Notes: generated from the sequence alone by a model not told the origin. Numbered from the stretch's first letter, positions 864-49,005 are shown. The stretch: 64,000 bases of DNA from Escherichia coli (GCF_030013595.1 NZ_CP122768.1), one strand, 5' to 3'. Made by a program: numbers and translations.

Positions 864-883
864 AAAAAGGCCGCAGAGCGGCC
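864..883. repeat. attL core of the P2-like prophage (direct repeat copy 1)
   Basis: Exact 20-bp match to 36907-36926; contains the hairpin GGCCGC-aga-GCGGCC. Confidence 0.6.
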
Positions 884-1008: not shown

Positions 1009-1446
1009 TTACTTAATAACAGTAACCACAGCCACAAGCACGGCCATCGCAGACAGGACAATACCTGTGAGTAACCAAGTCTGATTTGCAAATGATTTCT
1101 GAAGTTCAGTACGATGCTCAGCCATCTCAACTTTCAGAGACTGGCGTAAATCAGCCATCTCAGACTTCAGGGATTGGCGCGATTCTGCCATCTCAAGCCT
1201 CAACCCTTCGCGAATCTCCAGTACATCAGATTTGGTAGCAAAGGATTCGCTTCTTGTGGTGAGAGTAATCAGGTTGTTTTTGATTTCAGTCACATCACTT
1301 TCCAGGCAACTGACCCGCCGTTCAAGGTCGTCATTCATGCCATCACCTCCATCATTACCACTTCCTGTTACTTGGTTGTTGGATACATTATAGGCATTCT
1401 CTTTCTTTTTTCTGAACCGCGAAATATGTGCAACATTCTCTGCCAT
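1009..1446 (-). CDS. Hypothetical coiled-coil protein with C-terminal transmembrane anchor (cargo)
   Basis: ORF with repeated heptad-like segments (LRLEMAESRQSLKSEMADLRQSLKVEMAEHRTEL) and a hydrophobic C-terminus; start overlaps the stop of the upstream ORF (TGATG). Confidence 0.5.
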   Translation of the reverse strand: MAENVAHISRFRKKKENAYNVSNNQVTGSGNDGGDGMNDDLERRVSCLESDVTEIKNNLITLTTRSESFATKSDVLEIREGLRLEMAESRQSLKSEMADLRQSLKVEMAEHRTELQKSFANQTWLLTGIVLSAMAVLVAVVTVIK

Positions 1447-1808
1447 CACTTCTCATCACCCTGCTTGCCTACCCAGTTCATAAAGGCCCGGGCCGAGTAA
1501 CGATGAACAAACCCACATCTGTTACAGGTAAGTCGGAATTCATAGTTATGGATATTTTCCCGATCATGTCCCTCATATCCCGGATACCCAGTAAATGGAC
1601 CGATGTAATCAAGCATAACAAAAGTGCCTAAATCACACTCCTCAGCAGTTTTCGGCTCAGGCCCCACCTCAACAATATTCGTCAAATACATGTACATATC
1701 CGTATCGCCACACGACAAACATTTTTCATTCGTAGACGACTCATTGAGAAAACGCGCAAAATTATCGAGCGTTGCCATTCTTTTAAGTTCATCTAAATGA
1801 AACTTCAC
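1446..1808 (-). CDS. Hypothetical protein with two CxxC pairs (possible zinc ribbon), cargo
   Basis: GTG start preceded by AGGAGG located inside the last int codons; CLSCG and CNRCG motifs. Confidence 0.5.
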   Translation of the reverse strand: MKFHLDELKRMATLDNFARFLNESSTNEKCLSCGDTDMYMYLTNIVEVGPEPKTAEECDLGTFVMLDYIGPFTGYPGYEGHDRENIHNYEFRLTCNRCGFVHRYSARAFMNWVGKQGDEK

Positions 1809-1810
1809 TC

Positions 1811-2788
1811 TTAAGCACCTCCTAGTGGATTAAACCTCACCGCATCCTGCAGGTAATCCGGCGCAAGATGGGCATAAATCATCGTTGTCTGAATCTTTGC
1901 GTGCCCCAGAATTTTCTGGAGCGTCAGAATATTGCCGCCGTTCATCATGAAATGACTGGCGAAGGTATGGCGCAGCGCATGAACAGCCTGGCCGTCAGGA
2001 ACATCAGGTGCGACCGTTTTGATGACATCGCGAACCAATGGATAATCCAGCGTCGGAAACACCAGTTTCCCGCCCCGTATTTTGATCTTTTCAAACAGGC
2101 TTTCAGAAATAGGAACGGTACGGTTTTTGCTGTTCTTCGTTTTTGAAAAAGTGATTCGACAATGAAGAACACGGCGCTGCTCTAGTGCCGCTACCTCGCC
2201 CCATCGCGCCCCGGTCGACAGAAGGATTTCGACAGCCAGCCGTTCATCGGGATTTTCAGCCAGTGCATCCAGCAACTGAACACATTCAGACTTACTCAGA
2301 TATCCCATTTCGCGCTCGTTAACCTTCATTCCTTTAAGGCCTTGAACGGGGTTATCGTTAAGAAAATGGCCGGATGAGATGAGTGCGGTAAACATCGCGC
2401 TTAACGCCCCAATCTCTCGATTTATGGTGCTGGGCTGTATCCCCTGCTCTATCCTGGACACACGTAGCTCGGTGAGCATCGTTGTATTAAGTTTATGCAC
2501 GCACGGGTCATCCATTGCCTCACTCAAGCGCAGCAATTTAAGGCGCGTGTTATGCCCTGACTTCATTAGCTGGCCGTGGTATTTCCACCACAAGTCAATA
2601 AGCACTGACAGCGGGCGGCGATCAATGGAGTTTCCTTTCCACTCATTGTTATGCTGTTGCGCCAGCACCCACCGCTCATATAAAACTGCATCCGATTTCG
2701 TTTTAAATTTTTTGCGAATGCGTTTGCCTTTACGCCCCTCAGGACGCATGTCAAGAAGATACCCTCCCGGAATTGATTTTATGCTCAT
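1811..2788 (-). CDS. int: Tyrosine integrase (P2 Int-like)
   Basis: C-terminal HxLRHT...Y catalytic region (AVHALRHTFASH...MIYAHL); adjacent to C repressor as in P2. Start chosen at MSIKS (ORF is open up to 2938). Confidence 0.85.
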   Translation of the reverse strand: MSIKSIPGGYLLDMRPEGRKGKRIRKKFKTKSDAVLYERWVLAQQHNNEWKGNSIDRRPLSVLIDLWWKYHGQLMKSGHNTRLKLLRLSEAMDDPCVHKLNTTMLTELRVSRIEQGIQPSTINREIGALSAMFTALISSGHFLNDNPVQGLKGMKVNEREMGYLSKSECVQLLDALAENPDERLAVEILLSTGARWGEVAALEQRRVLHCRITFSKTKNSKNRTVPISESLFEKIKIRGGKLVFPTLDYPLVRDVIKTVAPDVPDGQAVHALRHTFASHFMMNGGNILTLQKILGHAKIQTTMIYAHLAPDYLQDAVRFNPLGGA

Positions 2789-2837
2789 TCGTGAAGCCCC
2801 AGCGTTACAAGACCACCATGCCCCCAGCGTTCCATGA

Positions 2838-3149
2838 TTAGCCGGGCTGTGTGCCAGTCTTGCGGGATTTTTGAGAAGACGATGTGTTTTCTGGCCCATC
2901 AGGGGAGAGAGAAGGACTGATCTGCCCAGCAGCCTCATTTGTTTCGTTACTCATCAACCACGTAGTGTATTTTTTAAATTCCGGGTGCATTGTGATTTTC
3001 AGTAAAACCTCCGTTCCCACACCTCGAATACCAGTCTCGTATTGCTTAACCGTACCAACCGCAATACCTATTGAATCCGCGAACTTTGCCTGACTAAGCC
3101 CCTCAGATTCTCGAATTGCTTTTAGCTTCTTTGATATCTCTATTGACAT
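2838..3149 (-). CDS. C: Immunity repressor (P2 C-like, HTH)
   Basis: About 103 aa from MSIEISKKLKAIRESEGLSQAKFADSIGIAVGTVKQYETG; helix-turn-helix; divergent from the early operon. Confidence 0.75.
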   Translation of the reverse strand: MSIEISKKLKAIRESEGLSQAKFADSIGIAVGTVKQYETGIRGVGTEVLLKITMHPEFKKYTTWLMSNETNEAAGQISPSLSPDGPENTSSSQKSRKTGTQPG

Positions 3150-8482: not shown

Positions 8483-9442
8483 ATGAAAATTTGTATCGAC
8501 GACGGCTCCACCAACATCAAGCTGGCATGGACTGAGAACGGCGAACGCCGCAACGCCATCAGCCCGAACAGCTTCAAGTCGGAATGGTCTGCGCCGTTCG
8601 GCGGCACGCAGCCCGCGAACTACATGCTTGATGGCGTGCGCTATGGTTTTGATCCGGTCAGCGATCGCTTTGTCCAGACGACCGACACGCAATACCAGTA
8701 CAGCGATGTAAATGTCATTGCCATTCATCACGCGCTGGTCAAATCAGGCATCACGCCACAGGAGGTGGATGTGGTTGTCACCCTGCCACTGAGCGAGTAT
8801 TTCGACACAAACGCACAGCCGGACATGGCCAACATCAACCGCAAAAAAGCGAACGTTATGCGCCCGGTGGAGTACCAGAACGGCGAAGCATTCACTATCC
8901 GTAACGTGCGGGTTATGCCTGAATCCATTCCGGCTGGCTTTAAAGCACTGGCTGACATGAGTCCGTTTGAATCCCTGCTGATTGTGGATTTAGGTGGAAC
9001 CACGCTGGATGTGGCAAAGGTTCAGGGACAACTGGCAGGTATCAGCCAGGTGTTTTGCGATCCACACGTAGGCGTTTCCCTGATGGCCGATGCAGTACTG
9101 TCGGTGATGGCCACTAACGGTATGCGTACCAGTCACCACATCGCCAATACCATTATCGAACATCGCCATGATGAAGCCTGGCTGCGCCAGCACATCCACA
9201 ATGACGCGCATTACGCCAGCCTGATGGCGGTTATTCGTGAAAAGGAAGAAACACTGAAACAACGCGTGATCCGCGCGCTGGCGGGTTTTTCGGGTTACGG
9301 GCGGGTGATGGTTGTCGGTGGCGGGGCGGAGATTGTGGCACCCGCTATCCGCGAAGCCTGCGGAGTTAATGCGACTTTCATCGCGGACGGGGTGCCACAG
9401 TTTGCTCTGGTTAATGGGCTGTACGCAATGGACAAGGAGTAA
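8483..9442 (+). CDS. parM: ParM/StbA-like actin-family partition ATPase
   Basis: Residue-level similarity along the whole length to plasmid R1 ParM as I remember it (IDDGSTNIKL, YSDVNV...HHAL, VMPESIPAG, LI.DLGGTTLD, GGGAE, LVNG). Confidence 0.85.
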   Translation: MKICIDDGSTNIKLAWTENGERRNAISPNSFKSEWSAPFGGTQPANYMLDGVRYGFDPVSDRFVQTTDTQYQYSDVNVIAIHHALVKSGITPQEVDVVVTLPLSEYFDTNAQPDMANINRKKANVMRPVEYQNGEAFTIRNVRVMPESIPAGFKALADMSPFESLLIVDLGGTTLDVAKVQGQLAGISQVFCDPHVGVSLMADAVLSVMATNGMRTSHHIANTIIEHRHDEAWLRQHIHNDAHYASLMAVIREKEETLKQRVIRALAGFSGYGRVMVVGGGAEIVAPAIREACGVNATFIADGVPQFALVNGLYAMDKE

Positions 9443-9446
9443 ACCA

Positions 9447-9758
9447 ATGACGACACCAACCAGACGGATAAGTTTCTATCTGAAGCCCGCCGCCGTCAAG
9501 AACGAAGGCGAAGCATGCGCCTGGCTGGACAGCCTTACACCAGAAGCCCGCAAAAGCGGCCAACGTGTGGCTTTTCTGGCCGGGCTGGCACTTCTGAAAA
9601 TGAATCCGGCAGAGGCTTACCGACTGGCTGCATGGGCTGACGATGAGGCGTTATCAGTGACACAAACCAGGACAGAACGCCCCGCGTCACAGCCAGTACC
9701 AACCACACAGATAACCAGTCGGATGGCCGGAAATATCAGGGCGTTATTTCCCGAATAA
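9447..9758 (+). CDS. parR: ParR/StbB-like centromere-binding protein
   Basis: Starts 4 bp after parM; resembles R1 ParR from memory (FYLKP, AALTAGLAL-type helix, RALFPE C-terminus). Confidence 0.6.
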   Translation: MTTPTRRISFYLKPAAVKNEGEACAWLDSLTPEARKSGQRVAFLAGLALLKMNPAEAYRLAAWADDEALSVTQTRTERPASQPVPTTQITSRMAGNIRALFPE

Positions 9759-9821
9759 CACAACATCAGGGCGCATCCGCCCTGATGACTTTAATCCGGG
9801 AACATAAACAAGGGGGACACA

Positions 9822-10154
9822 ATGCAACACATTGACAGAGAAAAAGCGCAGCGACTGATTGAGCGGATGGAAGCGCTGGCGAAAGAAGAAAATGTCAACA
9901 TCCAAAAAATAGCTGAATGTGGCCAGATAGTTCTTCGTCGTGAAAAAGACCTCAAACAACTGATGTCTGGCGAAACCAGCAAAACATGGACTTCAGGCGA
10001 GGAGACGATTTATTGCAGCTTCTGCAATAAATCTCAGTACGAAGTCACAAAGGTGATTGCCGGACCGTCTGTTTACATCTGCAATGAGTGCGTGGATTTG
10101 TGCAATGAAATTATCAGGAGAGAAGTGACAGACAAAAAGGGAAAAAACGCATGA
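9822..10154 (+). CDS. Small protein with a C-terminal ClpX-type C4 zinc-binding domain
   Basis: [39 protein letters not shown] closely parallels the ClpX N-terminal zinc-binding domain ([40 protein letters not shown]); no AAA+ module follows. Confidence 0.7.
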
Positions 10155-10489
10155 ACAGAAAACAAAAACAAGAGTTGAAATACTTTTTACGTAAAGAAAT
10201 TGCCAGGCTTGAAGATGCAGAATCACAATCATCAGAAATTCCGTTCGGAATGGATATCAACGACGCCCGTATGCTCCAGGCATACCGCATAGCTCAGGCT
10301 GCACTACAGGCAAAACCGTCAGATGGACTGGTTAGAGCAGTACGATTCTATGAACTGGTAAAGCGTGAGAATCCGCCAGCCGAAACCGGAGCATGGAAAG
10401 ACGCTGTTGACTGGGTACTCAAAGAGGCTTGTCAGGTTGTAAACACTGGCATCAAAGGAGACCTAGCCCAGCCTGCATCAAAGCTATAG
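10151..10489 (+). CDS. Hypothetical protein translationally coupled to the ClpX-ZBD gene
   Basis: ATGA overlap with upstream stop; 112 aa, no recognised domain. Confidence 0.5.
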
Positions 10490-10498
10490 AAATGAGCC

Positions 10499-10527
10499 AA
10501 AACGCCCTCTTCCAGGGCGTTTATTTC
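10499..10527 (+). terminator. Rho-independent terminator after the accessory genes
   Basis: GC stem AACGCCCT/AGGGCGTT followed by a T-rich tract. Confidence 0.55.
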
Positions 10528-10980
10528 AATGCACAATAGTGCACAAATTTGCACAATTTTTTTGAACGAATTTTTGCCCTTCCGGCCCGCGTGACAGTTG
10601 GATCCGTCAAGGATCCGTGCGTGCACAAAAAAACGCGCTTTTTCTGCGCGCAGGTGACGGGGGAACAGCCCGCGTTTCAGGGGGTAAATAGCATTCCCTG
10701 AACGATGTCGCAGAGATACAACAGAATGGCTGTATTTCTCACGCTGAGCGTGAAAAAGATGTGAGGGCTTTTGATTTGATGGGGTGAAAGGTAAGGCCGT
10801 CAAAATCGCACTGAGGCGGCGAGAACATACAGTCAACGCGGTAGGATTGCGTAAGAGTCTGACCGTCGATGGTGGCGATAAACTGGAAGGCGTCGTGAAA
10901 TTATCTGATTGATACAGGAGCTGGAGAGTCGGGGCATAAATTTTTTATGCCCCGGCGAAGCAGCAGACAAGCGAAGCGCG

Positions 10981-22189: not shown

Positions 22190-24781
22190 ATGAGTACCAC
22201 AACACGAAAATTTAAAACCATTATCACTGATACTGGTGCCAAAAAATTAGCTCAGGCAGCCGCGCCAGATGGTAATCCTGTCCGCCTGACTCACATGGCC
22301 GTGGGCGACGGTGGCGGCACGTTGCCCACACCAGACAGTAAGCAGACCCGTCTGGTGCATGAGGTGTGGCGACATACTGTTAATCGCGTCATCCTGGACG
22401 CAACACATCAGAACCGCATTATTGCGGAGCTGGTTATTCCTCCTGAAACGGGCGGATTCTGGATCCGGGAAATTGGTGTATTTGATGAGCACGGCGATTT
22501 GATCGCGGTGGGCAATACTGCGGAAAGTTACAAGCCAGCCGTTGCCGAAGGATCCGGACGTGTACAAACATTTCGCACCATTCTGACCGTATCCAGCACT
22601 GCCACCGTGGCGCTTACCGTGGATAACACCATGGTTATGGCCACAGTGGATTACGTGAATGACAAACTGAAAGAACATGAACAGTCACGACGTCACCCGG
22701 ACGCCTCGCTGACCGCAAAAGGCTTTGTTCAACTCAGTAGCGCCACCAACAGCACGTCTGAAACACTGGCCGCAACGCCGAAAGCGGTAAAGGCCGCGTA
22801 TGACCTTGCTAACGGGAAATATACCGCACAGGACGCCACCATAGCGCGAAAAGGCCTTGTCCAGCTCAGTAGTGCCACCAACAGCACGTCTGAAACGCTC
22901 GCCGCAACGCCGAAAGCGGTAAAGGCAGCATATGACCTTGCTAACGGGAAATACACTGCACAGGACGCCACCACAACGCGAAAAGGCCTTGTTCAGCTCA
23001 GTAGCGCCACCAACAGTGATTCTGAAACGCTTGCGGCAACGCCAAAGGCGGTAAAGGCAGCATATGACCTTGCTAACGGGAAATACACTGCACAGGACGC
23101 CACCACAGCGCGAAAAGGTCTTGTCCAGCTCAGTAGCGCCACCAACAGCACGTCTGAAGCATTGGCCGCAACACCGAAAGCGGTAAAGGCCGCGTATGAC
23201 CTTGCTAACGGGAAATACACTGCACAGGACGCCACCACAGCGCGAAAAGGTCTTGTCCAGCTCAGTAGCGTCACCAACAGCGATTCTGAAACGCTTGCGG
23301 CAACGCCAAAGGCGGTAAAGGCCGCGTATAACCTTGCTAACGGGAAATACACTGCACAGGATGCCACTACAGCGCGAAAAGGTCTTGTCCAGCTCAGTAG
23401 CGTCACCAACAGTGATTCTGAAACGCTGGCCGCAACATCAAAAGCGGTGAAGTCTGCCTATGACAATGCTGAAAAACGCCTTCAGAAAGATCAGAACGGT
23501 GCGGATATTCCGGGAAAGGATACCTTCACGAAAAATATCGGTGCCTGTCGTGCTTATAGCGGCGCTTTGAGCACTGAAGCCGGAAACTGGACAACCGCTC
23601 AGTTTATTGAATGGCTGGATTCCCGTGGTGCATTTAATCATCCGTACTGGATGTGCAAAGGCTCATGGTCATATGCAAATAACAAAATCATTACGGATAC
23701 CGGATGTGGTGATATCCACCTGGCTGGTTGTGTCGTCGAGGTCATGGGAACTAAATCTGCAATCACTATCCGAGTAACCACGCCGACAACATCAAGTGGT
23801 GGCGGTACAACCAGCGCACAATTCACTTACATTAATCATGGGGGCGGCTACTTCCCCGGCTGGCGTCGTGACTGGAATCGTCAGGGCGACTCAATGACCG
23901 GAACGATTAATCAGGATGGCGGAAGCCAGAATGCCTATATGTCTACGGCCTTATGTTCAGGCACCAGAGGCGGCAAAAAATATCTCAGAAAGTTTCGTGG
24001 TGGAGAAGGAGATACTATCTGGCATGAAACAGTACAGGGCGGGGTAATTCGCTGGGCGACAGGAAACTATGACGCTCAGGAAGAATTATCACTCAGCTCC
24101 GCTTATGGTCTCCGTTCAAGAGGTGAGATTACATCACTCAGTGCTAATGGTCTGCGCATTGCTTATGGCAATTATGGATTCTTTATCAGGAATGATGGCG
24201 GCAGCACATATTTAATGCTGACGGCCTCTGGCGATAAATTTGGGACATGGAACGGCTTAAGACCGCTGACTATCAATAACGCCAATGGCGGAGTGTCAAT
24301 GGGGCATGGCCTGAGTGTTACAGGTGATATTGTCTCAAGTACCAAAGTACGTGCCGGTAGCGGGAAAAAGTTCACGGTCAGCAGCAGCAATACATCCACG
24401 AAGGAAGCCGCATTCAATTTGTGGGGAAACGCAAGTCGTCCGGTGGTGGCTGAATTAGGTGATGATGCAGGCTGGCATTTTTACAGTCAGAGAAATACAG
24501 ATAACAGCATCACTTTTGCTGTTAACGGGCAGGTATCACCATCTAACTATGGCAACTTTGATTCACGCTATGTCCGGGATATTAGACTTGGTGGCGCGTC
24601 ATCCTATAAACCAGCAAATAACGGGACAACATGGACGCATCAGGCTCCATCTGGTTGCGCATATACCGGGATTATCGTTCAGGATACAGGCTCAAACTCT
24701 GCCGATAATATTGGTGGTGTTTATTACAGACCAATTCAAAAAAATATTAATGGTACATGGTATAACGTATCGAGTGTTTGA
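22190..24781 (+). CDS. H: Tail fiber protein (P2 gpH-like) with expanded internal repeats
   Basis: Conserved gpH N-terminus, then about 5.5 tandem 44-aa repeats and a distal receptor-binding region. Confidence 0.85.
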   Translation: MSTTTRKFKTIITDTGAKKLAQAAAPDGNPVRLTHMAVGDGGGTLPTPDSKQTRLVHEVWRHTVNRVILDATHQNRIIAELVIPPETGGFWIREIGVFDEHGDLIAVGNTAESYKPAVAEGSGRVQTFRTILTVSSTATVALTVDNTMVMATVDYVNDKLKEHEQSRRHPDASLTAKGFVQLSSATNSTSETLAATPKAVKAAYDLANGKYTAQDATIARKGLVQLSSATNSTSETLAATPKAVKAAYDLANGKYTAQDATTTRKGLVQLSSATNSDSETLAATPKAVKAAYDLANGKYTAQDATTARKGLVQLSSATNSTSEALAATPKAVKAAYDLANGKYTAQDATTARKGLVQLSSVTNSDSETLAATPKAVKAAYNLANGKYTAQDATTARKGLVQLSSVTNSDSETLAATSKAVKSAYDNAEKRLQKDQNGADIPGKDTFTKNIGACRAYSGALSTEAGNWTTAQFIEWLDSRGAFNHPYWMCKGSWSYANNKIITDTGCGDIHLAGCVVEVMGTKSAITIRVTTPTTSSGGGTTSAQFTYINHGGGYFPGWRRDWNRQGDSMTGTINQDGGSQNAYMSTALCSGTRGGKKYLRKFRGGEGDTIWHETVQGGVIRWATGNYDAQEELSLSSAYGLRSRGEITSLSANGLRIAYGNYGFFIRNDGGSTYLMLTASGDKFGTWNGLRPLTINNANGGVSMGHGLSVTGDIVSSTKVRAGSGKKFTVSSSNTSTKEAAFNLWGNASRPVVAELGDDAGWHFYSQRNTDNSITFAVNGQVSPSNYGNFDSRYVRDIRLGGASSYKPANNGTTWTHQAPSGCAYTGIIVQDTGSNSADNIGGVYYRPIQKNINGTWYNVSSV
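22715..23460 (+). repeat. Tandem in-frame 132-bp repeats (about 5.5 copies) inside the tail fiber gene
   Basis: Unit encodes RKGLVQLSSATNSxSETLAATPKAVKAAYDLANGKYTAQDATTA; copies near-identical at DNA level. Confidence 0.85.
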
Positions 24782-32396: not shown

Positions 32397-33032
32397 TTAG
32401 CGAGCTAATATATTCAAAGAATTTAACAATTGAGTGTCGAGTGTTTCAGTTGCAGGAATCGGTAATCCATTCGCAATGCGGTAATTTTTCACAGACAGCC
32501 TTGTGGATGGCCCCATTATGCCGTCAATATTTCCGTTATAAAATCCCCTGTCCAGCAATGCGAACTGAACTCGCATAATCAATCGCTTACGTTTCTCTGC
32601 ATCAGAAGCAAGCCCATTACTCGTACGGTTAACCTCTGAAGTTCCAACAGAACTCGTGTTAGTGGTTCTATTATTATCGTTAGAACGAAGTGCACGCACC
32701 GAGGAAGAGGACGATGAGGAACTTGCACCTGAACTTGAAGAACCAGATGAACTTGGTGAGCTGTATGTTTTTGGATAATAGGGGGTACTTCCACCATAGT
32801 ATCCACCACCTGATGAGGATCTATGAGAGCTATGGCTCCTATGAGAACTATGGCTTCGATGCCCTGCGATATAAAATGGGACTTCCGTGTTAAGTGGAGC
32901 TATCACTAAATCATGCTCATTAAGAGTCATACCAGGTAAATCACTCGCTCCTGTAGATGAATCGCTTGCCCATACAGAATTGTTGAGAGCCAAAAATCCC
33001 GGAAGTAGAGCAGCAAAATTAAACTTTTTCAT
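32397..33032 (-). CDS. hxsA: His-Xaa-Ser repeat protein HxsA: secreted precursor with Gly/Ser/Tyr-rich linker and C-terminal peptidoglycan-binding domain
   Basis: Signal peptide MKKFNFAALLPGFLALNNSVWA; HRSHSSHRSHSSHRS repeats; C-terminus LLDRGFYNGNIDGIMGPSTRLSVKNYRIANGLP resembles PG_binding_1; ATGA overlap with hxsC. Confidence 0.8.
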   Translation of the reverse strand: MKKFNFAALLPGFLALNNSVWASDSSTGASDLPGMTLNEHDLVIAPLNTEVPFYIAGHRSHSSHRSHSSHRSSSGGGYYGGSTPYYPKTYSSPSSSGSSSSGASSSSSSSSVRALRSNDNNRTTNTSSVGTSEVNRTSNGLASDAEKRKRLIMRVQFALLDRGFYNGNIDGIMGPSTRLSVKNYRIANGLPIPATETLDTQLLNSLNILAR

Positions 33033-34141
33033 AAAATTGGTCTCGGTGATTGATGAAAACGGCCTTTTGAGGAACTGAAATAGCCAGCACAGGAAGGCTT
33101 CTGAGTACATTCATCACATTCTTTTGGATAGTAATTTTTCCAATCAGAGATCGACTGAACAGCAAGCTCCCTAGCCCTTTCAGGAAGATAACACAAAGGA
33201 TAATTAAAAATTGTCAGAGGTATGCCTGACCTGTATGCAGCGTCTATGGCAGAGATTATTTTCTCACTATAACTACTGTGATCAATGAAGATGGTGGACC
33301 AGTTTTTTCGTGCCCAACCGATAGGCTCCAACCCCATAAGGGAAATCTGATTGATGTTGGAGAACACACGGCCAGCGAATTCTACGATATCATCCAATTC
33401 GGTATAGTTAGCCAGTGTAGGAATAACTCTAAGTTCGATATTAATCCCCAAGTTTCCTGCATTGATTAACCCTTTAACCGTTTCATTAAATGCGCCATCA
33501 CTCCCTACCAGATGATCATGCACAAGTGGTCTTGATGAGTAGAGCGGGATACCAAAGGTGATTTTGATCTTTTTGCTTCGCTTTGCCATTTCCTGTGTAA
33601 AGTTGGTATCAGCAAATTTGCGTCCGTTTGTTAAAACATGTAAAGCAGTATCTGGTGAATTCTCGATGATAAAATCAATGAAGTGAAGGAAGTCATCCCC
33701 ATATAGCAAAGGTTCACCACCGCTGACCCCAACAACTCCGTTCAAGCCAAATGAAGCTATAGCAAGAGCTGATTGGGTAAGTAGCCAGTCATCATTTATT
33801 TTCTTTGGTGGCTGCGAACAAAACAGACACAAGTTATTGCAGCGTTCCGTAACTAAGACAGTATTATGATTGGCTTTGCGTGACAGAATAACGCGTATCA
33901 TATTGCCATTGTTGATTATCCCAATATCTCCATCTTCAATTGACTCAAATAATTCAGTGCTAATAACAGAGAAATCAAAGCATGGTGGAATGGCATCATT
34001 ATTGCCTTCAGCAACTACTAGCAAATTGGGCAAAAAGAATAAAGGGTTCACTGGTTTTTGTTTGCATAACCGATAGAACCCCGTGGGCACGTTCTCTGTA
34101 GAAGCAAAATGAAAGATATCGTTCCTGATAACCTCAGACAT
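33029..34141 (-). CDS. hxsC: Radical SAM maturase (HxsC-type assignment; B/C assignment tentative)
   Basis: CNNLCLFC (Cx3Cx2C) radical-SAM cluster motif; C-terminal CDEC...C cluster; overlaps both neighbours. Confidence 0.8.
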   Translation of the reverse strand: MSEVIRNDIFHFASTENVPTGFYRLCKQKPVNPLFFLPNLLVVAEGNNDAIPPCFDFSVISTELFESIEDGDIGIINNGNMIRVILSRKANHNTVLVTERCNNLCLFCSQPPKKINDDWLLTQSALAIASFGLNGVVGVSGGEPLLYGDDFLHFIDFIIENSPDTALHVLTNGRKFADTNFTQEMAKRSKKIKITFGIPLYSSRPLVHDHLVGSDGAFNETVKGLINAGNLGINIELRVIPTLANYTELDDIVEFAGRVFSNINQISLMGLEPIGWARKNWSTIFIDHSSYSEKIISAIDAAYRSGIPLTIFNYPLCYLPERARELAVQSISDWKNYYPKECDECTQKPSCAGYFSSSKGRFHQSPRPIL

Positions 34142-35522
34142 ATGCCCATCCTTTTAGCATCTCAGCCTTCGAACCACCCTCTGAGATGCAGTTCATCAGA
34201 TACCTGAACATCCCCTTGTGATATTGACAAAACGTTGAACGACTCCTATCACCGACAGGCTCACCCTGTACACTTATGTTCTGGCATGGATCTGAACCAC
34301 AAAATGGTTGATATGCACATGTATCACAACCTGGCAGAGCAAAATTGAACGATGAACTCAATACTGCGTTATAGTAAGGACTATCAGAAAATGATAGCGT
34401 CTTAACTTCACCCGCACTGAACTCCGTTTCAGGATTCACCTTCTGCAACATACGGCTCTCATCGCTACCATATACTCGACCGTCATAATTGAAAAGAATA
34501 CTGTTAAGCACGACTCCACTTGGAGACTTTAAATCCGCATAACCACTAAAACCGGGATTGAAGATCCTTTTCAGATGAATGGAGGCCGAATGTTCCACAA
34601 CCCTTATCCCTTCATTATTAATCTTAAGGATTTCATCTATCAACGAGGCATAGAAGCTGAAGTATTCGTCCATAGAAAAGGTGAAAGAAGCTTTTTGTGC
34701 AAACCCATAGGGACTAACAGGTCGGATAAACATGTCCTTGAGACCAAGAGACAAGTGAGCCTGAACAATCGATTCAGGACGTCTGATAAGCTCTTTAGTA
34801 ACTGTAGTAACCGTTGCAACGCGGCCAGCACCTAAAGAGTGTTTGATAGCCTCTACCCCTGACACTGTTCTACTGTACGCAAGCCCACGACCAAGAATTC
34901 GATTACTGTTGTGAACAACTTCCTCACCATCAAGCGACACAGAGAACGTTATGTTCCGGTCTCTCGACCATTCAATCATATCCTCATTCAAGACAGACAG
35001 ACTTGATGCCACCACCATCTCAAAATTGGTTCTTCCCAGCGTTTCAGCACATTGATCATAGATGCTCTGAATTAAATCAAACCGCAAGAGAGGCTCCCCA
35101 CCCTGTATCTCTATTTTGTAAGGTGGCGTTGATAGTTTTTTAATAGCCGAAATAATATCGGGGATGAGCTCAGGATTTAGGTCGTAACCTGAGGCATTAA
35201 CAGAAGCTCTACTAACCTGGCAATACTTGCATGTATGGTCACAACGTAATGTGGGTACAATCATGAAAATTGGCCTGACAGCCAGTTCATTCATCAATCG
35301 TTTTGCAAAAGCAGAACTTAAAGCATAGGGAGTTATAGCAGATGAGCTTTCACTGGTTATGAAAAGCTTACTTTCTAGCACGTTTGATTGCTCCGAACTA
35401 ATTCGCTCATCAGAAAGATCAATAAGGTCTTGCTCACCAATGAAATGATGAAAACCTGCAAGGTTGCTTATAAACACCTGTCCATTAGGCAATCTGTCAA
35501 AATTAAATGGCATCAATTCCAT
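34134..35522 (-). CDS. hxsB: Radical SAM/SPASM maturase (HxsB-type assignment; B/C assignment tentative)
   Basis: CDHTCKYC (Cx3Cx2C) motif plus C-terminal Cys-rich SPASM-like region (CDTCAYQPFCGSDPC...C). Confidence 0.8.
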   Translation of the reverse strand: MELMPFNFDRLPNGQVFISNLAGFHHFIGEQDLIDLSDERISSEQSNVLESKLFITSESSSAITPYALSSAFAKRLMNELAVRPIFMIVPTLRCDHTCKYCQVSRASVNASGYDLNPELIPDIISAIKKLSTPPYKIEIQGGEPLLRFDLIQSIYDQCAETLGRTNFEMVVASSLSVLNEDMIEWSRDRNITFSVSLDGEEVVHNSNRILGRGLAYSRTVSGVEAIKHSLGAGRVATVTTVTKELIRRPESIVQAHLSLGLKDMFIRPVSPYGFAQKASFTFSMDEYFSFYASLIDEILKINNEGIRVVEHSASIHLKRIFNPGFSGYADLKSPSGVVLNSILFNYDGRVYGSDESRMLQKVNPETEFSAGEVKTLSFSDSPYYNAVLSSSFNFALPGCDTCAYQPFCGSDPCQNISVQGEPVGDRSRSTFCQYHKGMFRYLMNCISEGGSKAEMLKGWAYV

Positions 35523-35836
35523 TATGAAAGCCTCTCATCAACACTGCGAAGCACTTTATGGACAATAGAGTCTCTCAACGCCCCTGTTTTATGCTGTAGC
35601 TTTTCTCGCAAAGAGTAATCATTAAGCAGCCTATCGAATTCATAAAGGAATTTGGGATTATCGTTTTCAAAAGAGATTATCCAGTGGGAAACGTCTTCAT
35701 GGAGTTTCCATCGAGTAAGCGGAGTCATCCAATATAGACTATTGCGTATAACCCATTCAGAATATAGTTCTTTCTCAAACACTCTTTCGCTCATTGCAAT
35801 TATCTTCCAATACAAATATTCATGATCAGCAACCAC
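35522..35836 (-). CDS. hxsD: HxsD, small LLNDYxLRE-motif protein of the His-Xaa-Ser system
   Basis: Contains FDRLLNDYSLREKL; GTG start at 35836 (alternative ATG at 35794); stop overlaps hxsB start by 1 nt. Confidence 0.7.
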   Translation of the reverse strand: MVADHEYLYWKIIAMSERVFEKELYSEWVIRNSLYWMTPLTRWKLHEDVSHWIISFENDNPKFLYEFDRLLNDYSLREKLQHKTGALRDSIVHKVLRSVDERLS

Positions 35837-36906: not shown

Positions 36907-36926
36907 AAAAAGGCCGCAGAGCGGCC
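36907..36926. repeat. attR core of the P2-like prophage (direct repeat copy 2); also the terminator hairpin of the downstream lambdoid gene
   Basis: Exact 20-bp match to 864-883; on the minus strand it forms hairpin plus T-run just after the stop of ORF 36949-37164. Confidence 0.6.
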
Positions 36927-36948
36927 TTTATGGTTTATTGACAATTGA

Positions 36949-37164
36949 TTAAGACGTGTGGCACTTATTGGCACACCAATAGCAACCATTCACCCGGGAA
37001 TATCCTTTGGCCTTTGCCTCTGTTACCGCCGAAGAACAATCACTATAGTAACCAAGGTAATCGCGGTTAGCTACAGCAGGAAGATATGAACATTCCTCAG
37101 CATGCACCTCATGATCGCCATTGCTCTGAGCATTTTTGTTCACGTAATAGTGTTTAAAAACCAT
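36949..37164 (-). CDS. Hypothetical small Cys-rich protein (lambdoid late region)
   Basis: 71-aa ORF ending at a hairpin terminator. Confidence 0.4.
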   Translation of the reverse strand: MVFKHYYVNKNAQSNGDHEVHAEECSYLPAVANRDYLGYYSDCSSAVTEAKAKGYSRVNGCYWCANKCHTS

Positions 37165-37584
37165 TGTATAACTCCATGTTGACGCTGATATTCAGCATTA
37201 ACATGCTATATCACCAATTACACAAACATAAGCTTGTTATTTCAATTAGTTGATAACGATCACCACTGAACTTTGGCCTTGCGAAATTCAAATGTTTTTC
37301 TGACTATTATTGGGCCGATAAACAGATATTATTTGAGCGTTTTGGTTCATTACATAAGCAATATCTCCATCTTTCAGAATGACTTTCCCATCCTTTCCCG
37401 ATACGGCAATACTCCGCTGCTCAGGATGATAGCCAATGCTACGCCCGCAATGGATCTCTTCCCCACCATTTTGAGACATGACTTTTACAGTTAACATTTT
37501 TCTGCTCCTATTTAGATGCCCTTTCCATCCGGGCCACTGTTCAAAGTAAATTTAGATTCAACAATATTCTGCTCTTACAGGCGA

Positions 37585-37782
37585 TCAGTTCTGCATACAC
37601 TGCCGAACACCGTCGACAATTTCACAGACCTGAGAAGCTGTATCGAAAAGCTGGCGCGCCTTATCCAGGCTGACGCATCCCACCAGGAAAAAAGGCACCA
37701 GTATCGCTACCAGTGCCCATTTCGCCGCCGTTCGCGGCATTCTGTGTGTCCAGTGTTTTCGCTTCATCTCACTATCCACCAA
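37585..37782 (-). CDS. Putative small lipoprotein
   Basis: Signal peptide with lipobox FLVGC. Confidence 0.35.
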   Translation of the reverse strand: MVDSEMKRKHWTHRMPRTAAKWALVAILVPFFLVGCVSLDKARQLFDTASQVCEIVDGVRQCMQN

Positions 37783-38266
37783 TCAATCCGGATAAGCTCA
37801 ATACTCGCCAGGCGGTGGAAATGAAAATGGCAACCAACATTGCTGAAAATGAAAGGCCAACAACCACACAGAGAATTCGCGCCAGTTTTATAATGCTATC
37901 TGACATATTTACCCCTGCCCCACTTACGATTTCACAGCAATGAGCAATTTTGCCATCCCATACAGCATCGGAGACACAGCGATACCGACCGCCACCCACT
38001 TAATGGCAAAAGCCACCGCTCTGCTGATGTCATCAGTTACAGGCGCTTTCAATTCAAGGCCGTTTTTCATAGTCAACCTCAACAGAATTAGTTTATACTT
38101 CCTCATGTTCTCCTTTGCCTTACCCAAGGCCAGAAACAGAAAACCCCGGACTGTTACCGCAGCCGGGGTTTTTGCTATCTGATGCTATGCCCCTTACTTT
38201 CGCTCATCGTAGCCCCAGAAAAGAGCCTGCATGAGTTGAGGGTGTTCAGCACTTCAGTGTCAGTTT

Positions 38267-38833
38267 TTAAACCACCACGCGCTCTTTCATCCAGCCATAG
38301 ACAAACGACTCATTGGCCTCGCGTTTCTCTGCCAGCTCCAGATAACGCTCGCCCTGCGTACAGTTCAGGGCTTTCACCAGTACCAGTTCACCATCCCTGC
38401 TGCGATTTTTCAGATATGCCCGTAATGCATTAAGAGTACGCGGCCCGATGCGTCCATCAGCATCCATATCCGGATAGAGTTTCCCGCGCAGGTTGAAAAC
38501 GTTCAGCCAGCGCTGAAGCATTCTGGACGCCACAGTTGGCCCCATGTTCACGCCCGTATCGCACAACTCTGCGGCAATATCCGGAGACAGGTCCTCAACC
38601 TGGTCGAATCGTGGTCCGTACCAGTAGTCCGCCTCGAGTATTTCCAGCGCCTGCCCACGCGTCAGGTCACGCATATCGCCCTGATAACCGTGTGCACGGG
38701 CAACTTTTTCAGTGATGCCCCATTTAGTCGGACCACCTTTATCATCCGGGTGATTGACGTAACCGCCCTCTTTTCCCAGAATTTCGTCAAAAATTTCATC
38801 TTTCGACTTCATATCAGCGCCTTCGTAATACAA
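38267..38833 (-). CDS. Endolysin, GH108-type lysozyme with peptidoglycan-binding domain
   Basis: N-terminal EGGYVNHPDDKGGPTKWGIT block typical of GH108 phage lysozymes; follows holin-like genes. Confidence 0.7.
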   Translation of the reverse strand: MYYEGADMKSKDEIFDEILGKEGGYVNHPDDKGGPTKWGITEKVARAHGYQGDMRDLTRGQALEILEADYWYGPRFDQVEDLSPDIAAELCDTGVNMGPTVASRMLQRWLNVFNLRGKLYPDMDADGRIGPRTLNALRAYLKNRSRDGELVLVKALNCTQGERYLELAEKREANESFVYGWMKERVVV

Positions 38834-39104
38834 GGATTTTTGATACGTTCCCGCGTGCTCGTATCACCAGCACGCAGAACACCAGGTTAATCAGGACGAC
38901 CAGCCAGTTACCGGGAGGAAAGCGACCACACAGATAACAAAGCGGCGCAAAGGCATAAAGCAGCATCAGCAGCCAGGCCAGCCACGACATCAGCGGTTTA
39001 TGTCTCGACTCACCACGACGATAAAAAAAGAGCGTCAGCACGATAACCGTGCTTAACACCACATTCAGTAATCCGGGAAGGTTACTTAACATTACCGCCT
39101 CCAC
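38814..39104 (-). CDS. Putative holin/antiholin-like membrane protein
   Basis: Three hydrophobic segments; between holin and lysozyme. Confidence 0.4.
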   Translation of the reverse strand: MEAVMLSNLPGLLNVVLSTVIVLTLFFYRRGESRHKPLMSWLAWLLMLLYAFAPLCYLCGRFPPGNWLVVLINLVFCVLVIRARGNVSKILVLRRR

Positions 39105-39471
39105 CCCGCAGACGGGAGAACAGCCCGGATACCAGCGATGCGATATCCTGCTGGTGGATGAATGAGAGAATCTTCACCGACACCACCGATACCAGTACCG
39201 CACAAAGCGCGTCGAGAGATGTGCTGTGGAGATTCAATTTTTCGACCAGCCAGGACGCAAGGACATCCGCCCCCAGCACGCCAACAATGAACGACACCAG
39301 AAAATGCGCCGCCACACGCCAGACAGAAATCACCTGTGGCATCGTGGCCACAAACAACGCCCCGGCAAACGCGCCAAACACAATCCCGAAATCCGTCCCG
39401 GTAAACAGCCCGAATACCGTCGCCCCGCCGAGCGCCACAGCAGTGCTGGAACCGGATAAGGGTTCAGACAT
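39082..39471 (-). CDS. Putative holin
   Basis: Gly/Ala-rich transmembrane helices; first gene of the lysis cassette. Confidence 0.5.
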   Translation of the reverse strand: MSEPLSGSSTAVALGGATVFGLFTGTDFGIVFGAFAGALFVATMPQVISVWRVAAHFLVSFIVGVLGADVLASWLVEKLNLHSTSLDALCAVLVSVVSVKILSFIHQQDIASLVSGLFSRLRGGGGNVK

Positions 39472-41095
39472 ATTTATTCTCCTGTAAATAAAAAGGACCA
39501 TCAGCGGCCCCGTAACTGACATTTTATTAACGTTTGAAGATATGGATATTTATCAGGGTTTACCGTTTTCTGAACCCTGGATATGTTAAGCATTCAGCCC
39601 GCCAGTGGTGGGACGCTGGCTCATCATAGAGAAAGAGGGATGGCTGATTACCTCTGATCAGGGAAATCACATGCAGTTTTTACATAAAAGAATGCATTTA
39701 AATGCAGGAGATACGGTAGTGGTTGACTGCTCTCATCAGTGCAATATTTTGCTGATGACAGATACAAACTTTAATAACTACCGCAACGCAAGAAGCTTTC
39801 ATCATCACGGTGGTGGCGGTTTTTTTCAGAGATTACCGGCCCACCTTCATGTACCGCATTCAGGTTACTGGAATATTACAATTGATTTAGGAGGCGGAAG
39901 TGCAGCTATTCGGCACTCCATTTCCGTCATCCCAGCATAGCAACTCGCCTTTAGCCTGAGTAAATGCGTCCTCAAGGACGGCAACGAGTCGCAGTTGCGT
40001 GCCGTCCTTTACACAGCGTGTGCAGGCAATACCTTCAGAACTTTCATTATGCCGAGCTCATACAATTTCACCATTTTGTTCAACTACAACGCTCATAATT
40101 TTCTTACACTTTTTTAATAAACCACACCAATAACAACCATCACCGATACCTTTTGTATGCTGTTATTTTGCATTACGGTGTAACGGCAAGAGCCCCCTCC
40201 CCGCCCTGAAAGGCTCTGTGTTTTTGATGTGCGCCTGATGTGGCTCAGATACAAAAAAGCTCGCAGTAGCGAGCTAACAGAAAATATGAAGCATGTTTTT
40301 ATCCACGAAGTATGACGTTGAATTCATCCATACCGACACGGCTGGCTATCTCGTTGTATTCCTCAACAAGAGCCAGCAATTCTGAATTAGCAGCCATGAA
40401 CTCTTCAAAAACCTTATGGATGGCATCACTGTTTAATAAAACAATGTTCTTTCCTGAAAGGCGATCAGGGGTAGAAAATATAACTGTCAAACGACTAAAG
40501 GCCCTGGCTCGTTCAGCATTAACATCCTCAATACGCTGCAACAAGCTGGAGCACCTGGAAATATCATCAATATTCACTCTACTCCTGCCATCTGGATGAT
40601 AATCATTTCACGGAGAGAAGCACTCAGAAGTACCACTGAAGTATAGCTGGTGACCAGCTACTTACACATCTATTGCCATCCTGCTGATGATAAGTCGACA
40701 TTAGCCCTTCTGTCTATAAACGAAACAAAGGATAAGTTCAGGTTTTAAACACACTGCCAGGATAAAGTATTGTATACAGTATAGAAGAGCGTTATTGAAT
40801 GACATAAAAAACCAGACCTAATCCCTTATCCGGAAGATATATCAAATAAACGGGGAAAATGTATTAAGATGGCGTTCCTATTCTCTCCATCCCTGATGTC
40901 CACGTAACTCGTTATAGAATCAGAACGCCATCTGAATACACACAAAAAAGCTGACTTCACACCCTCCAGATGTGTGAACGCAGTGCCCGACCACGTGCTT
41001 TCGCAACCAGCACAAATCATTTTAAAGCATCGAAAAACGATCAGAATATATCAGAACTTCCTAGCATCCTGCTTGGCTTAGATATTAATCGAGGA

Positions 41096-42181
41096 TTAGC
41101 TCCTGTTCTTATCTAATTGTGCATTTCGCAATTTATCGTTCAGCACCAATATTTCACCAACTGTTTGTTCAAAACGCCCGGACTCAAGTTCAACCCCAAT
41201 CGTGCGACGCCCCAATCCCATTGCTGCTTTTATTGTTGCCCCCGATCCCATAAAAAAATCCGCAACCACATCCCCCGGACGACTGCTGGCAGAAATTATC
41301 TGACGCAACATATCCGCCGGTTTTTCGCAGGGATGCTTACCCGGATAATACTGCACGGGCTTATGCGTCCAGACGTCCGTATAAGGAACGGCGGCCGATA
41401 CAGAAAAATAACGCCGCAGAGATTTGTATTCCTCAAGCAGACTGGCATATTGCCGGTTCAGTTCACTGTATGTGCTGACCAGTTGCTGGTGTGGCGTTGC
41501 CAGCTCCCCACGCTGGTGCTTTTCTTCTGCAACACACGCGAACAGCGCCTGCAGTTTTCTGTAATCAGCTTCGTTCGGTAACTGCCACTGACAGGTACCA
41601 AACCAGTGCGACACCATGTTTTTCTTTCCGGTGGCTTCCGCTATCTGTTTGGACGTTATCCCCAGTGATTCACGCGCATCACGGAAGTAAGAAATCAGCG
41701 GGGCCATGACGTGTTGTTTAAGCTCGCGCTCCTTTGCCGCATAGCCATCATTTTTTGGCTGGTATGGCCCCTGATAATGTTCGGCAAACAGAATGCGCTC
41801 TGTTGCCGGGAAATACGCCCGCAGGCTTTCTTTGTTGCACCCGTTCCAGCGTCCGGATGGCTTCGCCCAGATAATGTGGTTCAGCACATTAAAGCGCTCA
41901 CGCATCATGATTTCGGTGTCAGATGCCAGGCGATGACCACAGAACAGGTAGAGACTTCCGGCAGGTTTCAGTACCCGCCAGAACTGAGCCAGACACTGAT
42001 CCAGCCATTTCAGGTAATCATCGTCGCCCTTCCACTGGTTATCCCAGCCCTCGGGCTTCACTTTAAAGTATGGCGGGTCTGTGACTATCAGATCGACAGA
42101 GTTTTCCGGTAAGGTCTGGATAAATTCCAGGCAATCAGCGTTGATTAACTCACAACTGGATATTTTTACAGTATCAACCAT
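41096..42181 (-). CDS. DNA N6-adenine methyltransferase (orphan)
   Basis: DPPY catalytic motif (VTDPPYF); SAM-binding region FFMGSGAT near the C-terminus; no adjacent endonuclease gene. Confidence 0.8.
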   Translation of the reverse strand: MVDTVKISSCELINADCLEFIQTLPENSVDLIVTDPPYFKVKPEGWDNQWKGDDDYLKWLDQCLAQFWRVLKPAGSLYLFCGHRLASDTEIMMRERFNVLNHIIWAKPSGRWNGCNKESLRAYFPATERILFAEHYQGPYQPKNDGYAAKERELKQHVMAPLISYFRDARESLGITSKQIAEATGKKNMVSHWFGTCQWQLPNEADYRKLQALFACVAEEKHQRGELATPHQQLVSTYSELNRQYASLLEEYKSLRRYFSVSAAVPYTDVWTHKPVQYYPGKHPCEKPADMLRQIISASSRPGDVVADFFMGSGATIKAAMGLGRRTIGVELESGRFEQTVGEILVLNDKLRNAQLDKNRS

Positions 42182-42702
42182 AGATCAATAAGCACTTCTC
42201 TGATAGGCTCATACCGCTTTTGCGCAAAGCAGATGGGCCTGAGGTTTGCTTGTGACCCTAACGCATGAGCAGATGGCTGGCAGGTGCCGCTAACACCCAC
42301 CAGCCGCCCATTACCACAAATGAAAAAACCTTCACTGCGGAAGGCGTCTGTAACAACCGAACTGATAATCTGCCAGACCCGCCATAACAAGCTGGGTCAG
42401 TATTAACTGACAGCGTTCGCGTGAAAGGTAAGTATTCTGCGCAATTTCCCCAACTGTTGCCGGTTCAGTGACGCTTAATTCATTAAACACCACTCTGGCT
42501 GTTTCGGTCATATCCTGCTGTTTTAGCATGTCTTTTTCTCTTTATTGGTTAACGTGACATACCAATAACTCTTGTCGAAAAAGCCAGCAAGCTGAAAGAC
42601 CGGTATTAATAACCACCTGCACATTTTATGTACCGAACCATTTTTCTGGCATAAAAAACCTCTCAATGGCGGGCGGTAAAAATCTTTGTTACTCAAGAAA
42701 TT

Positions 42703-43416
42703 TTAACGCACTCTGACTGTATTAATTTCAAAATCATTAATATTTCCGCTATTAAATATAACGAATTTCTTACCCCCACTCCTGTATGATTTCGATAACA
42801 CCAGACGATCATCATAACGCGCAATAATGTAATACCATACATTCTCATAGTGGATCGCCTGATATTCCCTCTTAAACTGTGGTTTGTACCAACCGGCAAT
42901 AAGAGAGAATGCCCAGAAATAAATCATAAACCCAGCCATCATGAACTCAATTCGGTGATGACGAATAAAAGACATTTCCGAAAAACATTTGACTGAAACA
43001 AGTCTTCTTCCAAACCTGACAAAAAGCGTGATTGTAAAGGCAGCAAGAATGCAGAAAATCAGTACATCTGGCTCAACATGCTGATGGATTACCGAAAACT
43101 CCAGAACAGGTGGAATAAAAAGCAGCAATATCGCGAGAAAAAGCCGGATAAAACTCAAATTTTGTATATTGCGCTTTTGTTTTATGCCCAAAAAGAAAAC
43201 AATACCAACTCCCCATCCAATAAGGAATATAACGATAACTGTCACAGCATAAAACAAACTTCGTGCTACATCATCGACACCAGCCCCGACAACCCACCAT
43301 GGAAAGCCATAGTAAAATGAAGTACCCCATCCATAGAAATAAGCGCTTCCCCATCCTAGACAGCCCATATAAGCAACAAAAAGTGAAGAGTTTCTGAGCA
43401 GAGCACTGTCATCCAT
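42703..43416 (-). CDS. Multi-pass membrane protein of unknown function (cargo downstream of Q)
   Basis: 237 aa, several hydrophobic helices rich in Trp/Tyr/Phe; AT-rich gene. Confidence 0.5.
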   Translation of the reverse strand: MDDSALLRNSSLFVAYMGCLGWGSAYFYGWGTSFYYGFPWWVVGAGVDDVARSLFYAVTVIVIFLIGWGVGIVFFLGIKQKRNIQNLSFIRLFLAILLLFIPPVLEFSVIHQHVEPDVLIFCILAAFTITLFVRFGRRLVSVKCFSEMSFIRHHRIEFMMAGFMIYFWAFSLIAGWYKPQFKREYQAIHYENVWYYIIARYDDRLVLSKSYRSGGKKFVIFNSGNINDFEINTVRVR

Positions 43417-43670
43417 AGTAACACCATTAACAACTCAAAAATATCAACACATATTACATAACAAATTGGATTCCATGCAGTCAAGGGGCGTCATTGATGG
43501 AGAAAGTATTGGCACAATCATCATCACGTTTAATGTCTATGCCATTTTTTTGGGGATAAAAAAACCCGCTCGGTCACGGGTTTTACTAGCTTTGCCATCA
43601 CGTATAAAAACGGCAAAATATCAGATTCACACGAAATATATGCCTTTTTATCTACTTTTGCAATACTTTG

Positions 43671-44692: not shown

Positions 44693-44704
44693 CAGTAACC
44701 TCTT

Positions 44705-45754: not shown

Positions 45755-45755
45755 G

Positions 45756-46082: not shown

Positions 46083-46163
46083 TATTGTCTCTGATTTCTG
46101 TTGTCGTCAACAGGCAACGTGCTATCATCGAATGGTGTTCTATCCTACTCCGTGAGGTTTACC

Positions 46164-46421: not shown

Positions 46422-46426
46422 TCTGC

Positions 46427-48989: not shown

Positions 48990-49005
48990 AAGCCCTCCCC
49001 TGGAA

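Follow-up and report, generated by a model that had tools for sequence, protein, structure and literature searches.

A prophage-borne two-gene cassette between int and attL in Escherichia coli, built from uncharacterised protein families and a candidate anti-phage system

Several described gene systems resemble, in one respect or another, the prophage cassette that is the subject of this work. One is the rexA-rexB pair of lambda, where RexA has about 280 aa and RexB is a four-pass membrane protein. The mycobacteriophages Sbash (gp30/31) and Butters (gp30/31) carry two-gene prophage defence pairs that are expressed in the lysogen, each combining a cytoplasmic with a membrane protein and lying beside the repressor or integrase. 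For phage P2, the classical defence hotspot runs from gpA to the portal gene gpQ (PMC9122126). A 2026 preprint that covers thousands of P2-like elements found that the interval between int and att is a minor hotspot, with 3% of the P2 defence systems, and called this location atypical (bioRxiv 10.64898/2026.02.27.708500). On the protein side, XhlA is a membrane protein that PBSX needs for lysis, alongside its holin and endolysin (PMC5589764), and Hartmann et al. have described a beta-layer motif, [aliphatic]-A-T-K-[polar]-[D/E], that marks trimeric alpha/beta coiled coils and is prominent in DUF1640 membrane proteins (PMC4786415).

In this work, we analyse two small genes in a 64,000-nucleotide stretch of Escherichia coli DNA (GCF_030013595.1 NZ_CP122768.1; hereafter 'the window'), which a first-pass annotation had picked out as a possible cargo module next to a P2-like integrase. 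Our literature searches, by RefSeq accession and for DUF1640 in phages, found no study of the pair, and the XhlA literature gave only the PBSX/XhlA lysis work. We propose that the pair is a prophage-borne two-component cassette built from uncharacterised protein families, and that it is a good candidate for a new anti-phage system.

Layout of the locus and its host prophage

The pair belongs to a tight block of four genes on the minus strand (1009-3149) that consists of the C repressor, int, gene 1 and gene 2 (Table 1). The repressor is the presumed first gene of a C-int-g1-g2 transcript. The int stop codon (TAA, 1813-1811) is separated from the GTG of gene 1 (1808-1806) by a gap of just 2 nt, and the gene-1 stop (TGA, 1448-1446) and the gene-2 ATG (1446-1444) overlap as TGATG, a 4-nt gene overlap. 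Both junctions are as the first-pass annotation had read them: an AGGAGG-preceded GTG directly after the int stop does open a 120-aa frame, and the stop/start overlap is found at 1448-1444. In identical prophages the same two ORFs are annotated by NCBI, at 120 and 145 aa.

Table 1. Coordinates of the cassette and of neighbouring features in the window.
Feature	Position	Strand	Remarks
attL core AAAAAGGCCGCAGAGCGGCC, 20 nt	864-883	.	exact repeat at 36907-36926 = attR
hairpin like an intrinsic terminator	862-883 (stem and loop 883-869)	-	formed by the att core, GGCCGC-TCT-GCGGCC then TTTTTC
gene 2, 145 aa	1009-1446	-	ATG start as in the NCBI call; phrog_9415, a family without assigned function
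C-terminal transmembrane anchor, residues about 124-144, WLLTGIVLSAMAVLVAVVTVI	1015-1077	-	Kyte-Doolittle mean 2.58
tandem 33-nt (11-aa) repeats in the coiled coil	1118-1183	-	copy number differs among homologues
F-A-T-K-S-D, residues 69-74	1225-1242	-	beta-layer motif; D74 nearly invariant; F replaces the aliphatic residue
conserved internal ATG, Met37 (1338-1336), after GGAGGTGAT (1350-1342)	1336-1350	-	candidate second start, giving a 109-aa isoform
gene 1, 120 aa, GTG start, four-cysteine zinc-ribbon type (predicted)	1446-1808	-	phrog_4293, a family without assigned function
gene-1 Shine-Dalgarno AGGAGG	1818-1823	-	inside the int 3' end, 9 nt 5' of the GTG; read from the sequence
P2-type tyrosine integrase (int), 325 aa	1811-2788	-	phrog_1 match 5e-72; phage integrase annotation in L001
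C-type immunity repressor, 103 aa	2838-3149	-	phrog_147 match 5e-34; NCBI annotation is HTH regulator

The first terminator 3' of gene 2 is the hairpin formed by the att core, with no earlier one in the gene block. A promoter scan of the minus strand gave nothing above chance in front of gene 1; the single match on this strand (1416-1387) lies within gene 2, and the total number of matches is not above chance. The 2-nt gap, the 4-nt overlap, the lack of a promoter match before gene 1 and the terminator after gene 2 fit co-transcription with C and int. As no promoter of its own was detected, expression of the pair would rest on read-through from Pc. We infer that the pair is probably transcribed from the repressor promoter along with C and int, and would thus be made in the lysogen. 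This case is strengthened by relatives that occupy other lysogeny operons, namely L034 and the lambdoid prophages in which the pair lies between cI and a terminator (see below). The placement in a lysogeny operon that had been proposed at the outset is well supported, and the comparative data have made it stronger.

Direct repeats of the att core at 864-883 and 36907-36926 mark the ends of the element, hence the pair sits between int and attL. When the window is compared with the same prophage in its usual btuC-proximal location, homology sets in at about 864, in agreement with this boundary and with the location first claimed for the pair. The element is P2-like, as indicated by a GpA-type nickase, a tail sheath, and portal and large terminase genes divergent from the capsid gene. 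This 36-kb prophage (864-36926) is nested within a lambdoid prophage (1-863 and 36927-52655). One lambdoid flank holds the 5' end of Nu1 and cos (1-465), while the minus strand of the other (38267-51736) encodes an endolysin, holins, a methyltransferase and cII. Because other strains carry this P2-like phage next to btuC, the site used here, a terminator-like hairpin between another phage's lysis genes and cos, is a secondary att site. We searched the flanking lambdoid prophage for a second copy of the cassette and found none.

The prophage hosts further genes of interest. A complete His-Xaa-Ser radical-SAM cassette (HxsD, HxsB, HxsC and HxsA) lies on the minus strand between gpD and attR (32397-35836), from which we conclude that the attR end of the prophage also bears cargo. 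Each of the four exceeds its curated NCBIfam cut-off, and the PADLOC viperin matches of the two radical-SAM enzymes are only weak. Several ORFs without a PADLOC match occupy the classical P2 hotspot (8483-10836, from gpA to the portal gene), and a 110-aa protein encoded there (9822-10154) has a C-terminus that matches the ClpX N-terminal region (profile positions 6-52, 2e-13). In the tail-gene region, an 863-aa ORF (22190-24781), presumably a tail fibre, includes six tandem copies of a 132-nt unit that are up to 92% identical (22585-23544).

The two proteins

The gene-1 family comprises 96 clusters (50% identity level) at E <= 1e-3 in a profile search against 1.84 billion cluster representatives, and an alignment of 71 sequences was drawn from them. 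Exactly five internal positions are invariant in this alignment: C30, C33, C95, C98 and W112. The protein had been noted for two CxxC pairs, and these (C30/C33 and C95/C98) are borne out by the invariance of all four cysteines. The AlphaFold model built from the 71 sequences has a mean pLDDT of 87.9 and supersedes a model from only 9 sequences (pLDDT 66). It consists of two N-terminal helices, a beta-sheet that bears both CxxC knuckles and a C-terminal helix. The product is small, with an acidic C-terminal tail, and we predict that it is a soluble protein of the zinc-ribbon type.

Searches of gene 1 found no significant match in Pfam, NCBIfam or PADLOC, and nothing in the PDB by sequence profile. 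When the model was compared with AFDB50 using Foldseek, only uncharacterised proteins were returned; Enterobacterales supplied most of them, and Pseudomonas, Aeromonas and Halomonas a few. At Foldseek rank 46 (TM 0.37) the fold weakly recalls zinc fingers of the YgiT/MqsA type, and a structure search of BFVD gave no match at or below 1e-3.

Gene 2 encodes, in order, a basic N-terminal peptide of approximately 36 aa, a Gly/Asp-rich linker, a coiled coil and a C-terminal transmembrane anchor. The coiled coil and the C-terminal anchor are as the first-pass annotation described them, whereas the length needs correction: the protein has 145 aa from the ATG, and the 146 aa reported earlier uses a GTG one codon upstream. 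In an alignment of diverse partners the N-terminal peptide spans 25-37 residues and follows an [LI]xx[FY][PR]-basic pattern. The linker ends at a conserved Met, after which the coiled coil opens with LE(K/R)RV..LE and goes on to the motif F/Y-A-T-K-x-D. The coiled coil has a segment of variable length, made up of three 11-residue repeats in the window, and homologues are longer or shorter here. The anchor, a single C-terminal transmembrane helix, is preceded by N-Q-T-(K)-W. From hydropathy, the product is predicted to be a tail-anchored protein of the inner membrane.

Two variants of gene 2 deserve a mention. In a lambdoid form (L060:4377-4931 and L061:4377-4907) the anchor is followed by (Ala-Pro)n, with 14-19 or more copies, and the length of this tail differs between the two similar prophages. 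Presumably it extends rigidly into the periplasm, and a periplasmic tail in this position implies an N-in/C-out, tail-anchored topology for gene 2. In L052, L054 and L056, which belong to a Klebsiella siphophage group, the gene is broken after NQKW by a sequence encoding '...AFVHRVGY...', which suggests that a mobile element was inserted into the cassette.

The window's gene 2 has no significant Pfam match (CCDC90-like at E = 0.064, XhlA unlisted), and by sequence profile the PDB offers generic coiled coils only. Its relatives are more informative. Pfam assigns two of them to XhlA (best 3.8e-6) and one to three to CCDC90-like/DUF1640 (best 3.5e-8); the gene-2 relatives bridge XhlA and DUF1640. 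In the domain and remote-homology searches suggested at the outset, some relatives of gene 2 thus match XhlA/DUF1640, and the window proteins themselves match no named family in Pfam, NCBIfam, PADLOC or the PDB. Neither protein shows homology to defence or toxin proteins in PADLOC 2.0, NCBIfam or Pfam, the last searched with both family alignments as well, and NCBIfam and PADLOC yielded only noise such as Cas12a at 0.03 and LmuB at 0.007.

Which form of gene 2 is made? Many databases, the commonest cluster included, annotate just a 109-aa form that would begin at the conserved internal ATG (Table 1). The anti-Shine-Dalgarno duplex at this ATG is -10.6 kcal/mol, and at most -9.3 kcal/mol in 10 of the 12 lineages compared, with the pairing contributed by Gly codons; at the upstream start the duplex is -3 to -9 kcal/mol. 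We take the long form to be real because its frame is open in all 12 lineages, where the start, counted from the last base of the gene-1 stop codon, ranges from -32 to 0 nt. The 109-aa form as the sole product is rejected, since in 12/12 lineages a further 25-37 open codons precede it, beginning at the gene-1 stop or overlapping it. The short isoform is possibly a second product.

The selective constraints on the locus can be compared between the window and related prophage copies. The pN/pS ratio is 0.05-0.17 for gene-1 residues 65-120 and 0.02-0.03 for the gene-2 coiled coil and anchor (residues 37-145), while int gives 0.04-0.3 in the same comparison. The central loop of gene 1 (residues 40-64; 1617-1691) behaves differently, with 19.7 non-synonymous versus 3.3 synonymous changes and a pN/pS of 1.8 against L030, a copy that is 99% identical to the window in int, 93% in gene 2 and 78% in gene 1. 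As judged from these comparisons, both genes are real and under purifying selection, which is strong on most of both, and the fast-evolving loop of gene 1 suggests an arms race.

Distribution of the pair

Do the two genes belong to the backbone of P2-like phages, or are they cargo? Our census covered 5,426 complete E. coli genomes. This integrase is found in about 298 of them (238 at >= 80% coverage), and the two-gene cassette in 85, or about 1.6% of the sample, with STEC, ETEC and APEC strains among the carriers. In 158 genomes the same slot of the same btuC-site prophage is filled by an unrelated gene of 131 aa, and about two thirds of the prophages with the same integrase and att site are without the pair. 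The 131-aa gene (L010:3082-3477; E. coli O104:H4 2009EL-2050 and 157 others) starts 10 nt past the int stop and has no PADLOC match. A tblastn search of 50,697 phage records found no gene 2 and a gene 1 in just four Klebsiella records, and the pair is absent from the sequenced P2/186-type phages of this phage collection.

The slot census (85 versus 158 versus about 298) and the scarcity in the phage collection lead us to regard the pair as optional cargo, and on the census a role as P2 backbone is rejected. The earlier suggestion that accessory genes occupy the slot between int and attL is upheld by the same figures and by the absence from P2/186-type phages. That suggestion would have fallen if homologues had proved to be routine backbone genes at this position in related P2-like phages. 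Homologues do recur here in P2-like lineages of Klebsiella, Salmonella and others, as a passenger that switches sites and not as backbone. The cassette also displays the pattern by which a moron is recognised, that is, presence, absence and replacement among near-identical phages.

Beyond E. coli P2-like prophages, the pair is found in a variety of settings. We sampled 12 independent lineages, and in each of them the gene next after a gene-1 homologue (18-42% identity) is a gene-2 analogue; the two are always adjacent or overlapping, with a spacing of -32 to 0 nt, and the architecture of gene 2 is constant despite 25-40% identity. P2-like prophages have the order C-int-g1-g2 (the window, L002 from Klebsiella, L004 and L058/59), and the allele of L058/59, which also occupy the btuC site, is 23% identical. 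The order is C-VasI-int-X-g1-g2 in L005-7 and cI-X-g1-g2-int in L034. In the Rac-like lambdoid prophages L060-63 it is cI-g1-g2-terminator, with the pair directly downstream of cI, the site at which lambda carries rexA-rexB. Insertions into tail modules are seen in L003 (of the Klebsiella siphophage group) and L064 (a myovirus). Finally, in L008/L009 the pair stands alone in the chromosome, flanked by cdaR and dapD/glnD and away from any phage genes. Terminators were found 3' of the pair in L064 and L060, and none was found in L003. No holin or endolysin genes lie next to the pair in any context examined. On this distribution, the pair is an old, mobile accessory operon ('moron') of temperate phages.

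Function and comparison with known systems

We hypothesize that the pair is a lysogen-expressed, membrane-tethered system for phage exclusion or abortive infection that follows a Rex-like logic, a reading to which we give about an even chance. A trimer of the gene-2 protein would hold the gene-1 protein at the cytoplasmic face of the membrane, the candidate contacts being the basic N-terminal peptide of the former and the acidic C-terminal tail of the latter, and the two together would act on superinfecting phages at the inner membrane. They could do this in either of two ways. The gene-1 protein may sense a phage component and set off membrane damage mediated by gene 2, as in abortive infection of the Rex kind, or a complex of both proteins may block genome entry at the inner membrane, which would amount to exclusion.

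We favour exclusion or abortive infection because of the operon layout, the accessory status of the pair and its location in a known minor defence slot. The reading gains further from a pairing that is kept in 12/12 lineages, at both lysogeny and tail-module sites, and from the combination of purifying selection, a fast gene-1 loop and gene-2 relatives that match XhlA/DUF1640. Counting against it are the lack of any match in PADLOC 2.0, NCBIfam or Pfam and of a promoter of its own, and the fact that most P2 cargo at the int-att slot is not known defence. Likewise, the standalone chromosomal copy persists without a phage and would also fit a role in host physiology, and a single-pass trimeric anchor makes no obvious pore.

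A more elaborate version of the same idea can only be advanced tentatively. The pair would represent a family, not described before, of two-component anti-phage systems that Enterobacterales prophages express in the lysogen. In these, a flexible leash would link a fast-evolving zinc-ribbon sensor to a tail-anchored, trimeric coiled coil of the alpha/beta type, and 11-residue repeats would tune the length of the coiled coil. The membrane protein might exist as two isoforms, one from the coupled start and one from the conserved internal start with its Shine-Dalgarno in the Gly-rich linker. The inner membrane would be the site of action, and the logic would be that of Rex, with unrelated parts.

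The standalone copy between cdaR and dapD/glnD also encourages a rather different view, that the pair is a lysogenic-conversion factor acting on host physiology, such as envelope stress, stationary-phase behaviour or colonisation. It might do so in the manner of ElaB and YqjD, which are host tail-anchored proteins. Position in a lysogeny operon and accessory status suit this view as well as they suit exclusion, and so does the lack of similarity to known defence proteins. We nevertheless consider it unlikely: unrelated temperate phages have repeatedly taken up the pair at sites of exclusion genes (the rexAB position and the tail-module moron), which is most typical of competition between phages, the gene-1 loop suggests an arms race, and Pfam gave no similarity to DUF883, the ElaB family. 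The pair could instead be an addiction module similar to toxin-antitoxin systems, with gene 2 as a membrane toxin, the zinc-ribbon protein as its antidote, and the prophage or the slot stabilised as a result. The overlap of two small genes, the first of them for the soluble protein, in a mobile cassette with many contexts is in keeping with this, as are the echo of YgiT/MqsA-type zinc fingers and the part that XhlA relatives take in membrane lysis. Yet neither protein matched a toxin or antitoxin family in Pfam, NCBIfam or PADLOC, the pair has neither a promoter of its own nor a DNA-binding domain for autoregulation, and gene 2 is far larger than known membrane-peptide toxins, highly conserved and endowed with a long structural coiled coil, which together make addiction quite improbable.

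Might the pair serve the phage's own life cycle, by assisting lysis as XhlA does, by regulating integration or excision, or as a counter-defence factor produced when the phage enters the cell? The Pfam XhlA matches of gene-2 relatives, together with the need for XhlA in PBSX lysis, invite the question, and the pair adjoins int in the window and in several relatives, with some copies in late, tail-gene regions. The chance of this is slim, however, given that about two thirds of the prophages with the same integrase and att site do without the pair, as do sequenced P2-type phages, that it was never seen beside holin or endolysin genes, and that it also occurs beside cI with no int nearby and alone in the chromosome. 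Nothing besides the missing annotation speaks for chance or decaying ORFs without function. Four cysteines and one tryptophan are invariant in 71 diverse homologues, the AlphaFold model is confident, the pairing is kept in 12 lineages and purifying selection acts on both genes; the invariant residues, the pairing and the selection exclude this reading, and we regard its probability as negligible.

If the pair does prove to be anti-phage, the defence repertoire would gain a two-gene family that is compact (about 800 bp) and has no known domains. Such a finding would also illustrate that P2-like, lambdoid and other temperate phages can house one and the same cargo interchangeably at the int-att end and at the rexAB position, and provide a first functional handle on bacterial tail-anchored coiled coils of the XhlA/DUF1640 type. 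Since the pair is found in about 1.6% of complete E. coli genomes, STEC, ETEC and APEC strains included, an effect on the host range of therapeutic phages is possible. If it is not a defence system, it is still a widespread lysogenic-conversion pair.

How does the cassette compare with the systems described to date? With XhlA (PF10779) of Bacillus subtilis PBSX and with the DUF1640-CCDC90-like proteins (PF07798), gene 2 shares a coiled coil followed by a C-terminal transmembrane helix, and it carries the A-T-K-x-D motif. It differs in that the window's gene 2 is sub-threshold for these families and has an additional N-terminal peptide and Gly-rich linker. It also differs from XhlA in its company, a zinc-ribbon gene in a lysogeny operon instead of holin and endolysin in a lysis cassette.

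The likeness to lambda RexA/RexB is one of layout: two genes, transcribed together with the repressor in the lysogen (as is predicted for our cassette), that end in a terminator and yield one soluble and one inner-membrane product, both likewise predicted in our case. The position downstream of cI is found in the relatives L060-L063, and its equivalent in the window is the C-int operon. In contrast, the cassette proteins have no sequence or profile similarity to RexA or RexB by PADLOC, Pfam or NCBIfam. Gene 2 has one hydrophobic segment, at its C-terminus, and is not a multi-pass channel; the membrane protein is a long coiled coil, and its soluble partner is a 120-aa protein of the predicted zinc-ribbon type. 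Of the features that would make it a member of the Rex family, the cassette, as read from its genes, has the position only.

To the Sbash and Butters pairs the likeness is by logic only, the proteins and the hosts being unrelated. The cassette proteins are equally unrelated to those of P2 old, tin and Z/fun, and the locus is the int-att interval as opposed to the main hotspot between gpA and gpQ. Even so, like these genes and the P2 defence hotspots, the cassette is optional cargo of a P2-like prophage that resides at a slot for gene exchange.
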